Shown: in pieces, positions 28,201 to 30,226 of the stretch
Position numbering within the stretch: position 1 is the stretch's first letter
How the letters are laid out: each line of letters opens with the position of its first letter
Assembly (NCBI RefSeq): GCF_041886205.1
Contig: NZ_CP169029.1
Direction: 5' to 3' (one strand)
From: Escherichia coli
GTDB lineage: Bacteria; Pseudomonadota; Gammaproteobacteria; Enterobacterales; Enterobacteriaceae
Length of the DNA: 64,000 nucleotides
Position numbers and translations under genes: made by a program
The notes under the pieces: generated by a model
What the model saw: the letters and a program-made list of their open reading frames with translations, nothing else
What the model was told of the DNA's origin: nothing
The model's database searches: none

Positions 28201-29507
28201 CCACGATCCGGAATGGTGCCGCCGCTGGTAACCGCCAACAATTGAGCGCCAGGTCGGGCGGTCAATATCCCGGTCTCCCTGTTCCAGACCAGTTTGGGGC
28301 GAAAAGCAGAAAAATCGCCAGAGGGATAGCGCCCGGAAAGCATATCCAGCGTGGCGTCAAAAACACGTCTTGGCAGATCTTTCCACGGTGCGGCACGGCG
28401 TACGCGGGAGTACCATTCGTCTACCTGTAATGCATCCATCGCCGCGGCGGCAACGGTTTGCTGCGCAAGGACGTCGAGAGGATTATGCGGTGGTGTCAGG
28501 TTTTCCAGCCTGCCTGCGAACATACACTCTACAATGACTGTGGAATCGACTAAATCACGCCGGGTACGGGGGAAAAACAGCCCTTTAGATACACCGCCAA
28601 CCTGATGTCCGGCGCGACCAATGCGTTGTAACCCACTGGCAACAGAAAGCGGCGTTGCCACCTGAATCACCAGATCCACCGCGCCCATATCAATCCCCAG
28701 TTCAAGACTGGAGGTTGCGACCACGCAGCGTAATTCACCCGATTTCAGCGCCTGTTCGGTGATTGCTCGTTGTTCTTTAGAGACGGAGCCGTGGTGTGAG
28801 CGGGCAATAAAAACGTCGCTACTTTGTACACGGTTAGAGGTTGCGCCGGAGGTCGACTCGAAATGGGCCGCATCAACGGCGATAGACGGGGAACGCTGTA
28901 AGCGTGCGGCGTAAAGCTCATTTAATCGTGCCGTCAGTTTTTCCGCCAGCCCCCGCGAATTAGTAAAGACAATGGTCGAGCGATGGCGCAACACTTCATC
29001 AAGGATGCCCGTTTCAATATATGGCCAGATGGAGCCTTCCCGGCCGGCATGGCTGTCTTCGCCAGTGCCGCTGGCGACCGATGAGACATCATCCATATTG
29101 GCGACCGGTACGACAATCCGTATCTGCGGATGACGCATTGCGGGCGGGTTGACTACCGTAACCGGGCGATCGCCACCAAGAAATGCTGCCACATCGCTGG
29201 CTGAGCGCACAGTGGCAGAAAGGCCAATTCGCTGTGCTGAGGTGTGGAGCAGCGCATCGAGCCGCTCCAGACTTAACGCCAGATGCGCACCACGTTTACT
29301 GCCCGCTACCGCGTGGACTTCATCAATAATTACCGTTTCGACGCCGCGTAGCGTTTCGCGCGCGCGGGAGGTCAGCATCAGATAGAGTGATTCGGGTGTG
29401 GTGATCAGAATATCCGGCGGATTACGGGTGAGTTTGCTGCGTTCCTGTGCAGGCGTATCGCCAGTACGGATCCCTACGCGAAGATTGACTTCCGTTTCGC
29501 CGCGCCG
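25242..29507 (-). pseudogene. lhr: lhr (large ATP-dependent helicase) lacking roughly the first 115-160 codons; remaining frame intact (ORF-track ORF 25242..29378 starts at an internal Met)
   Basis: Lhr-like sequence runs from ...RRGETEVNLRVGIRTGDTPAQERSKLTRNPPDIL... through the DEVH box to the C-terminus; in-frame stop and non-Lhr sequence upstream of about 29507; Walker A region absent. Upstream boundary approximate. Confidence 0.8.
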
Positions 29508-29689
29508 CTGAAAAGCGGCGCACGAAAAACGCGAAAGCGTTTCACGATAAATGCGAAAACAACTGTTTCACGGAAAGGCATAATGGTTAAACACCCGGTT
29601 CTGGCGCATATAACTGAACGAAGTACACGACAAAAAAATATGTCACAGGTAAACTAAGTGAAACGACGCGTCTTAATCAAGGAGAACTC

Positions 29690-30226
29690 ATGACGTATCA
29701 ACAAGCTGGACGCATTGCTGTTTTGAAAAGGATTTTGGGTTGGGTGATTTTTATACCTGCATTGATCTCTACATTGATTTCTTTGCTGAAATTTATGAAT
29801 ACCCGACAGGAAAACCAGGAAGGCATTAATGCGGTCATGCTCGACTTTACTCATGTCATGATCGATATGATGCAGGCGAATACGCCTTTTTTGAATCTGT
29901 TCTGGTATAACTCCCCGACGCCCAATTTTAATGGTGGCGTGAACGTTATGTTCTGGGTGATTTTCATCCTGATTTTTGTCGGACTGGCGTTCCAGGATTC
30001 CGGTGCCCGGATGAGTCGCCAGGCGCGCTTCTTGCGGGAAGGTGTTGAAGATCAACTCATTCTGGAAAAAGCCAAAGGGGAAGAGGGGCTAACGCGTGAA
30101 CAAATTGAGTCCCGTATTGTTGTTCCGCACCATACTATTTTCCTGCAGTTTTTCTCACTGTATATCCTGCCGGTTATTTGTATTGCTGCAGGTTATGTGT
30201 TCTTTTCTCTGCTTGGGTTTATTTAA
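29690..30226 (+). CDS. yniB: Inner-membrane protein YniB (178 aa)
   Basis: MTYQQAGRIAVLKRILGWVIFIPALISTLISLL... hydrophobic 178-aa ORF with aaggag SD. Confidence 0.8.
   Translation: MTYQQAGRIAVLKRILGWVIFIPALISTLISLLKFMNTRQENQEGINAVMLDFTHVMIDMMQANTPFLNLFWYNSPTPNFNGGVNVMFWVIFILIFVGLAFQDSGARMSRQARFLREGVEDQLILEKAKGEEGLTREQIESRIVVPHHTIFLQFFSLYILPVICIAAGYVFFSLLGFI

Follow-up and report, generated by a model that had tools for sequence, protein, structure and literature searches.

The stretch of Escherichia coli DNA analyzed here (64,000 nt, hereafter the window) carries on its minus strand an lhr gene that lacks its beginning and, 182 bp beyond the point at which lhr breaks off, an intact yniB gene on the plus strand (29690-30226). 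The hxpB gene, which is the normal neighbor of yniB and is divergent from it in the annotation of both E. coli K-12 and E. coli 6EVA (NZ_CP138428.1), is absent here. A preliminary description of this DNA had presented the arrangement as a novel, IS-free synteny breakpoint in which a 5'-truncated lhr is fused to the region upstream of yniB. The geometry of that fusion is what we observe, including the distance of about 180 bp between the breakpoint and yniB, but its reading as a biological breakpoint did not hold, since an adapter lies at the joint.

On the minus strand, the translated Lhr frame extends without interruption from the C-terminus until it meets a stop near 29570, confirming the earlier impression of an intact frame that runs into a stop upstream. 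It can be read up to ...QRRGETEVNLRVG, after which it passes into unrelated codons and the stop. The first start codon of the truncated gene opens an ORF of 1378 aa (25242-29378, minus strand). The preliminary description had proposed an alignment of the breakpoint to K-12, and a local megablast to this genome fixes the last lhr base exactly at 29508, which corresponds to K-12 position 1729437. The lhr gene of K-12 spans 1729087-1733703, and thus, 350 nt of the gene start (116 codons plus 2 nt) are missing in the window, a loss that falls within the 115-160 codons first estimated. An exact-product look-up for truncated Lhr proteins of 1378, 1298, and 1284 aa found no record.

When compared with K-12, the window consists of two collinear blocks that run in descending K-12 coordinates. 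The first block (1-29508) corresponds to K-12 1757646 to 1729437 and is broken by a 1.3-kb insertion at 10865-12171, and the second (29628-64000) corresponds to K-12 1809293 to 1760159 and is broken by two 768-bp insertions and a 16.3-kb deletion. Apart from the three IS insertions, the remainder of the window follows the E. coli chromosome collinearly. At the breakpoints, K-12 position 1809277 is joined to 1729437 on the same strand, 79.8 kb away, a value that agrees with the separation of about 80 kb previously given for lhr and yniB. In purely geometrical terms, the end of a segment is joined in direct orientation to the start of the same segment, and this topology had been correctly recognized. 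The two ends of the window are only 2.5 kb apart in K-12 coordinates because a unit of 66.4 kb (79.8 kb less the 16.3-kb deletion, with the three IS elements added) is seen through a 64-kb window.

The whole window is 99.9-100% identical to 6EVA on both sides of the joint, with 0 differences in the 17,337 nt of positions 12172-29508 and 2-9 differences in each of the remaining blocks outside the joint. The five differences found at 29631-29644 reflect a garbled adapter leader and not divergence. The 6EVA genome is collinear with K-12, having a full-length lhr after rnt and hxpB divergent from yniB. Both flanks of the joint therefore belong to a single E. coli lineage and are ordinary, well-polished chromosome; the complete genome of that lineage does not have the junction, and 6EVA is essentially the kind of relative against which the notion of a novel junction does not stand. 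A cross-sample chimera of two strains was considered when the two sides appeared to be 99.1% and 100% identical to 6EVA, respectively, and was ruled out by the local alignment (99.9-100% on both sides), the low figure having come from the garbled bases 29628-29644.

The lhr-yniB junction was found in none of 5,426 complete E. coli genomes. A 38-mer of the junction was absent from the genome_contigs, metagenome_contigs, and viral_contigs collections, and the junction sequence was absent from the plasmid collection searched. All the contigs retrieved via the exact YniB or GhoS proteins show the normal hxpB-yniB neighborhood.

Table 1. Features around the lhr-yniB joint (window coordinates).
Feature	Coordinates	Strand	Evidence	Reading
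lhr without its first 350 nt (K-12 1729437-1733703)	25242-29508	-	Local megablast to K-12, identity to 6EVA, translation	Genomic insert of the read or contig whose start is the adapter
Rapid-barcoding right flank, i.e., phage Mu R1-R2 end	29509-29560	-	Mu identity, adapter alignment	
24-nt sample barcode slot, ATTATGCCTTTCCGTGAAACAGTT	29561-29584	-	Exactly 24 nt between two fixed flanks	
Left barcode flank as basecalled, AGAACCGGGTGTTTAACC (published flank, GCTTGGGTGTTTAACC)	29585-29602	-	Comparison with the published flank	
Remains of the sequencing-adapter top strand plus poly-T leader, TTTTTTTGTCGTGTACTTCGTTCAGTTATATGCGCC	29603-29638	-	Adapter alignment	
Six ambiguous bases (tatgtc) between the adapter leader and native sequence	29639-29644	.	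Match neither K-12/6EVA nor the adapter	Read-start or read-end noise
Native region upstream of yniB (45 bp) and intact yniB	29645-30226	+	Alignment to K-12 and 6EVA, with exact identity from the first base	End of the other read or contig

The joint itself is not native DNA, be it a blunt, microhomology, IS, or repeat junction, but 137 bp of synthetic adapter (29509-29644, Table 1). Oxford Nanopore rapid-barcoding kits use the MuA transposase, and the filler, when read on the minus strand, is composed of a poly-T leader with the sequencing-adapter top strand, the flank GGGTGTTTAACC, a 24-nt barcode, and the 50-bp R1-R2 end of phage Mu. The alignment of the minus strand from 29638 to 29509 with the expected read start, polyT-AATGTACTTCGTTCAGTTACGTATTGCT-GCTTGGGTGTTTAACC-(24 nt)-GTTTTCGC...GCCGCTTCA, gave 115 identities in 130 positions, with no mismatch in the last 22 of the 24 barcode positions or in the Mu flank as far as ...GCCGCTT. 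The right flank reads GTTTTCGC...GCCGCTT(TT)CA, with two extra T in the homopolymer. This 50-bp Mu R1-R2 flank, GTTTTCGCATTTATCGTGAAACGCTTTCGCGTTTTTCGTGCGCCGCTTCA, directly adjoins the genomic insert, and lhr starts at the next base. In the phage search, positions 29513-29560 were 100% identical (48 bp) to positions 36668-36715 of the 36717 of Mu, and this identity ends at the R1-R2 boundary, which is the length of the synthetic end. A 31-mer of the Mu flank occurs once in the window, where 0 occurrences are expected by chance. The sequence in the barcode slot is presumably that of rapid barcode 26 (ACTATGCC...), with one mismatch; a literature search for the exact 24-mer gave no matches.

The remaining parts of the filler agree with published descriptions of the tag. 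The rapid tag has been described as a left flank, a 24-bp barcode, and a 50-bp right flank, 90 bp in total (10.1101/2025.10.22.683865), and rapid-barcoding cargo carries the barcode flank GCTTGGGTGTTTAACC (bioRxiv 10.64898/2026.04.18.719403), of which GGGTGTTTAACC is found exactly within the left flank of the window (12/16). Next to it, a 16-nt exact core, TGTACTTCGTTCAGTT, matches the top strand of the Nanopore Y-shaped sequencing adapter, ...TTTTTTTTTTAATGTACTTCGTTCAGTTACGTATTGCT (PMC9965538). The match to the adapter is imperfect, given the two extra T in the Mu end and the garbled leader, and is consistent with a single-read consensus.

These data change what had been said about the joint. 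The sequence upstream of about 29507, which had been called unrelated, is the Nanopore rapid-barcoding adapter. The statement that neither an IS nor an att-like repeat is present at the joint is right with respect to the IS, but not with respect to the att-like repeat, as a 48-bp exact Mu attR (R1-R2) lies at 29513-29560. The GC-rich sequence gccgcgccgctg, for which microhomology-mediated joining had been suggested, is merely lhr target sequence abutting the Mu end. The MuA target consensus is N-Y-(G/C)-R-N, and the first five bases of the insert, GCGGC, fit it, which is a weak test since 1 in 8 pentamers do so. At 29500-29520, a perfect inverted repeat of 8 bp with a GAAA spacer is made up of the lhr target GCGCCGCT and the Mu end AGCGGCGC. 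Because of this repeat, some BLAST alignments to natural Mu ends extended into the lhr side, and the repeat is probably a coincidence helped by the preference of MuA for GC-rich targets.

The same tag is present in records that have no relation to this strain. A sensitive search against E. coli genomes yielded a match of about 50 bp adjoining many different genes, and in the plasmid search, the 48 bp of the Mu end were also located at the very termini of records from Streptomyces, Borrelia, and Acinetobacter, where the architecture of the tag recurs with other 24-mers. No coliphage could be distributed in this way, whereas sequences from library preparation typically are. The linear plasmid NZ_CP120993.1 of Streptomyces laculatispora ends in a tag arranged like that of the joint, with an identical Mu flank and an identical 18-mer, GGTTAAACACCCGGTTCT, and a different 24-mer between them. 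When the fixed-spacing pattern formed by the Mu flank, 24 N, and GGTTAAACACCC was searched among species-representative genomes, it was found in six Streptomyces contigs, at the contig end in five of them and internally in one. Four of the Streptomyces contigs belong to one assembly, and the 24-mer CTTGTCCAGGGTTTGTGTAACCTT is identical in three of these and differs at two adjacent bases in the fourth, whereas other Streptomyces assemblies carry other 24-mers in the same slot. The 24-mer CTTGTCCAGGGTTTGTGTAACCTT is BC05 (10.1101/2025.10.22.683865).

Contamination of public assemblies by rapid barcodes has been reported in the Barbell preprint (2025), where the Streptomyces NBC genomes are named, the flank alone is said to be confusable with endogenous Mu, and Illumina polishing and circularity calls are found to leave such remnants in place (10.1101/2025.10.22.683865). 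The joint resembles the catalogued cases in having adapter remains ahead of the left flank, the 24-nt barcode, and the 50-bp Mu right flank, and in surviving polishing; its flanks are identical to those at the contig ends of the Streptomyces NBC genomes. It differs from most of the reported contamination, which lies at contig termini, in that the tag is internal, joins chromosomal positions 80 kb apart, and mimics a tandem-duplication junction. With respect to the catalogued tags, that of the window also has the 2-nt homopolymer error and one mismatch to the presumed barcode. The internal Streptomyces tag is found in Streptomyces sp. NBC_01446 (NZ_JAPEPO010000004.1, positions 1821-1877 of the retrieved contig L013), where the tag with barcode CTTGTCCAGGGTTTGTGTAACCTT is followed by 2.2 kb more of sequence, suggesting a similar internal seam in a public species-representative genome.

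We consider it nearly certain that the lhr-yniB joint is a technical seam in a Nanopore-based assembly that retained an untrimmed rapid-barcoding adapter, and not a rearrangement of the chromosome. An assembly chimera had been named as one of several equally fitting options. Adapter sequence within assemblies is contamination of a known type rather than a true feature of the genome. Whichever technical route holds, in the organism itself neither is lhr truncated nor has yniB moved.

According to this interpretation, a DNA molecule of a MuA-transposase rapid-barcoding library would have been cut inside lhr, 350 nt into the gene, and the resulting read would enter lhr at nt 351 after the sequencing adapter, the barcode flank, the 24-nt barcode, and the 50-bp Mu end. 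The adapter was left untrimmed and is now internal to the contig, directly after the sequence that ends 45 bp upstream of yniB. On the minus strand, the order at the joint is that of the 3' end of one read or contig, the six noisy bases, and the untrimmed 5' start of another. The apparent truncation of lhr would correspond to the MuA cut site of that molecule, as suggested by the position of the last base of lhr homology, immediately adjacent to the ...CA terminus of Mu.

Two routes could have placed the adapter inside the contig. The most likely one, as far as can be deduced from the joint, is a terminal overlap of about 66 kb left untrimmed at the closure of a circular contig. The contig of the circular chromosome would have begun at the adapter of the lhr read, run about 66.4 kb past its own start, and been closed or rotated without trimming the terminal overlap, giving rise to a spurious tandem duplication whose joint would consist of contig end, adapter, and contig start. 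This route is favored because it automatically yields the same strand, the tandem order, and a spacing comparable to read lengths. The joint shares with untrimmed circular-contig overlaps the connection of a segment end to its own start, the same strand, an overlap on the long-read scale, and an adapter at the contig start, a likeness seen from the joint alone, as the second copy would fall outside the 64-kb window. Moreover, neither flank contains errors, even next to the adapter, implying that both had normal coverage. Counted against this route is the length of the overlap, as 66 kb is long to be left untrimmed by most assemblers.

The other route, a chimeric read, is possible but less likely. 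Two molecules would have passed back to back through one pore, been basecalled as one read, and been followed by the assembler, in the order of a first molecule ending upstream of yniB, the adapter of a second molecule, and lhr. Concatenated reads are a recognized Nanopore artifact (10.1101/2025.10.22.683865, citing Xu et al.), and a molecule 3' end followed by a complete 5' adapter and an insert is exactly how an unsplit concatenated read looks; an internal adapter is also present in the Streptomyces contig L013. However, random partners would seldom share a strand, follow each other in tandem order, and be separated by 80 kb: for two random molecules of a 4.6-Mb genome, we estimate that this combination arises in about 1% of cases. 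In addition, the perfectly polished flanks imply that many collinear reads should have outvoted a single chimera.

The preliminary description had also put forward a tandem duplication, an excised circle, a translocation, and microhomology-mediated joining, none of which is supported, the joint being occupied by synthetic adapter. One biological version is a genuine tandem duplication or excised circle of the lhr-to-yniB segment, of about 66 kb, whose junction the adapter merely contaminates by coincidence. The head-to-tail topology would fit such an event, and IS elements have been active in the strain, which has two copies of IS1, one IS3-family element, and a 16.3-kb deletion associated with IS1. 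Nevertheless, a real junction would have spanning reads and an adapter-free consensus, the lhr breakpoint coincides to the base with a transposase end, the joint has no IS or native repeat, and no related genome carries the lhr-yniB junction, so that we regard this possibility as very improbable.

Even more improbable is that a Mu-like transposable phage was inserted in lhr and left a remnant of its right end at the joint after a real deletion, duplication, or translocation. As in a Mu attR (R1-R2), the 48 bp are identical to Mu 36668-36715 and a TG...CA-type terminus abuts the interrupted host gene, and Mu-like prophages do occur in E. coli, since 89 of the 5,426 complete genomes match the Mu right-end 48-mer. 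However, natural Mu-like right ends run past GCGAAAAC into R3 and mom, whereas in the window the identity stops at the R2 boundary, without R3, mom, or other Mu genes, and what follows instead is the 24-nt barcode, GGTTAAACACCC, and the Nanopore adapter, as is also the case at the Streptomyces plasmid ends. In the Mu-like prophages of E. coli 2020C08-115 and E94, the sequence after ...GCGAAAAC is TTTAGCTTTCGCG... and continues into mom; the alignment shows that the window and the Streptomyces plasmid end part from these prophages at that exact base and agree with each other. The Mu-end match is also the single one in 64 kb, with no other Mu sequence in the window. A natural Mu-like prophage remnant was thus discarded because real E. 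coli right ends continue into mom and the window does not. The scar of a lambda-placMu or Mud lac fusion, which would involve a 117-bp Mu S end, was also rejected, as only 50 bp of Mu are present here. The two genomes inspected among the 89 with a Mu end contain genuine prophages with mom adjacent, located in a gene encoding an FAD-dependent oxidoreductase in 2020C08-115 and in torZ in E94.

The technical seam has no biological significance, and its value is one of quality control. The record that contains the window retains an untrimmed adapter, and it probably also has either a misjoin or a spurious duplication of about 66 kb. Because of the seam, lhr is made to look like a pseudogene, the hxpB-yniB adjacency falsely seems lost, and a synteny breakpoint appears that does not exist; an untrimmed tag can also seed spurious matches to phage Mu. 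Before breakpoints are interpreted, scans for novel junctions should check for a Mu R1-R2 50-mer with 24 nt and then GGTTAAACACCC behind it.

Three IS elements and one deletion were found elsewhere in the window. An IS3-family element of 1310 bp (10862-12171) interrupts ydhR beside the valV-valW tRNA genes. It has the ends TGAACCGCCCCGGG...CCCGGGGCGGTTCA and a duplication of 3 bp (AAT), and its OrfA and OrfB resemble those of IS629; neither K-12 nor 6EVA has this element. The IS1 plus IS3-family (IS629-like) load raised the possibility of a Shigella origin, which is not needed given that the window is near-identical to E. coli 6EVA. A 768-bp IS1 (35749-36516), also absent from K-12 and 6EVA, is inserted into the espL1/arpB pseudogene and is bordered by a perfect target duplication of 9 bp, GCTCTGATG. 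A second IS1 (47738-48505), inverted with respect to the first and without a target duplication, flanks the 16.3-kb deletion relative to K-12 (1775650-1791963) and to 6EVA. The genes lost are most of rflP/ydiV, selO, aroH, ppsR, ppsA, fadK, ydiO-T, and most of ydiF, in what looks like an IS1-mediated adjacent deletion.
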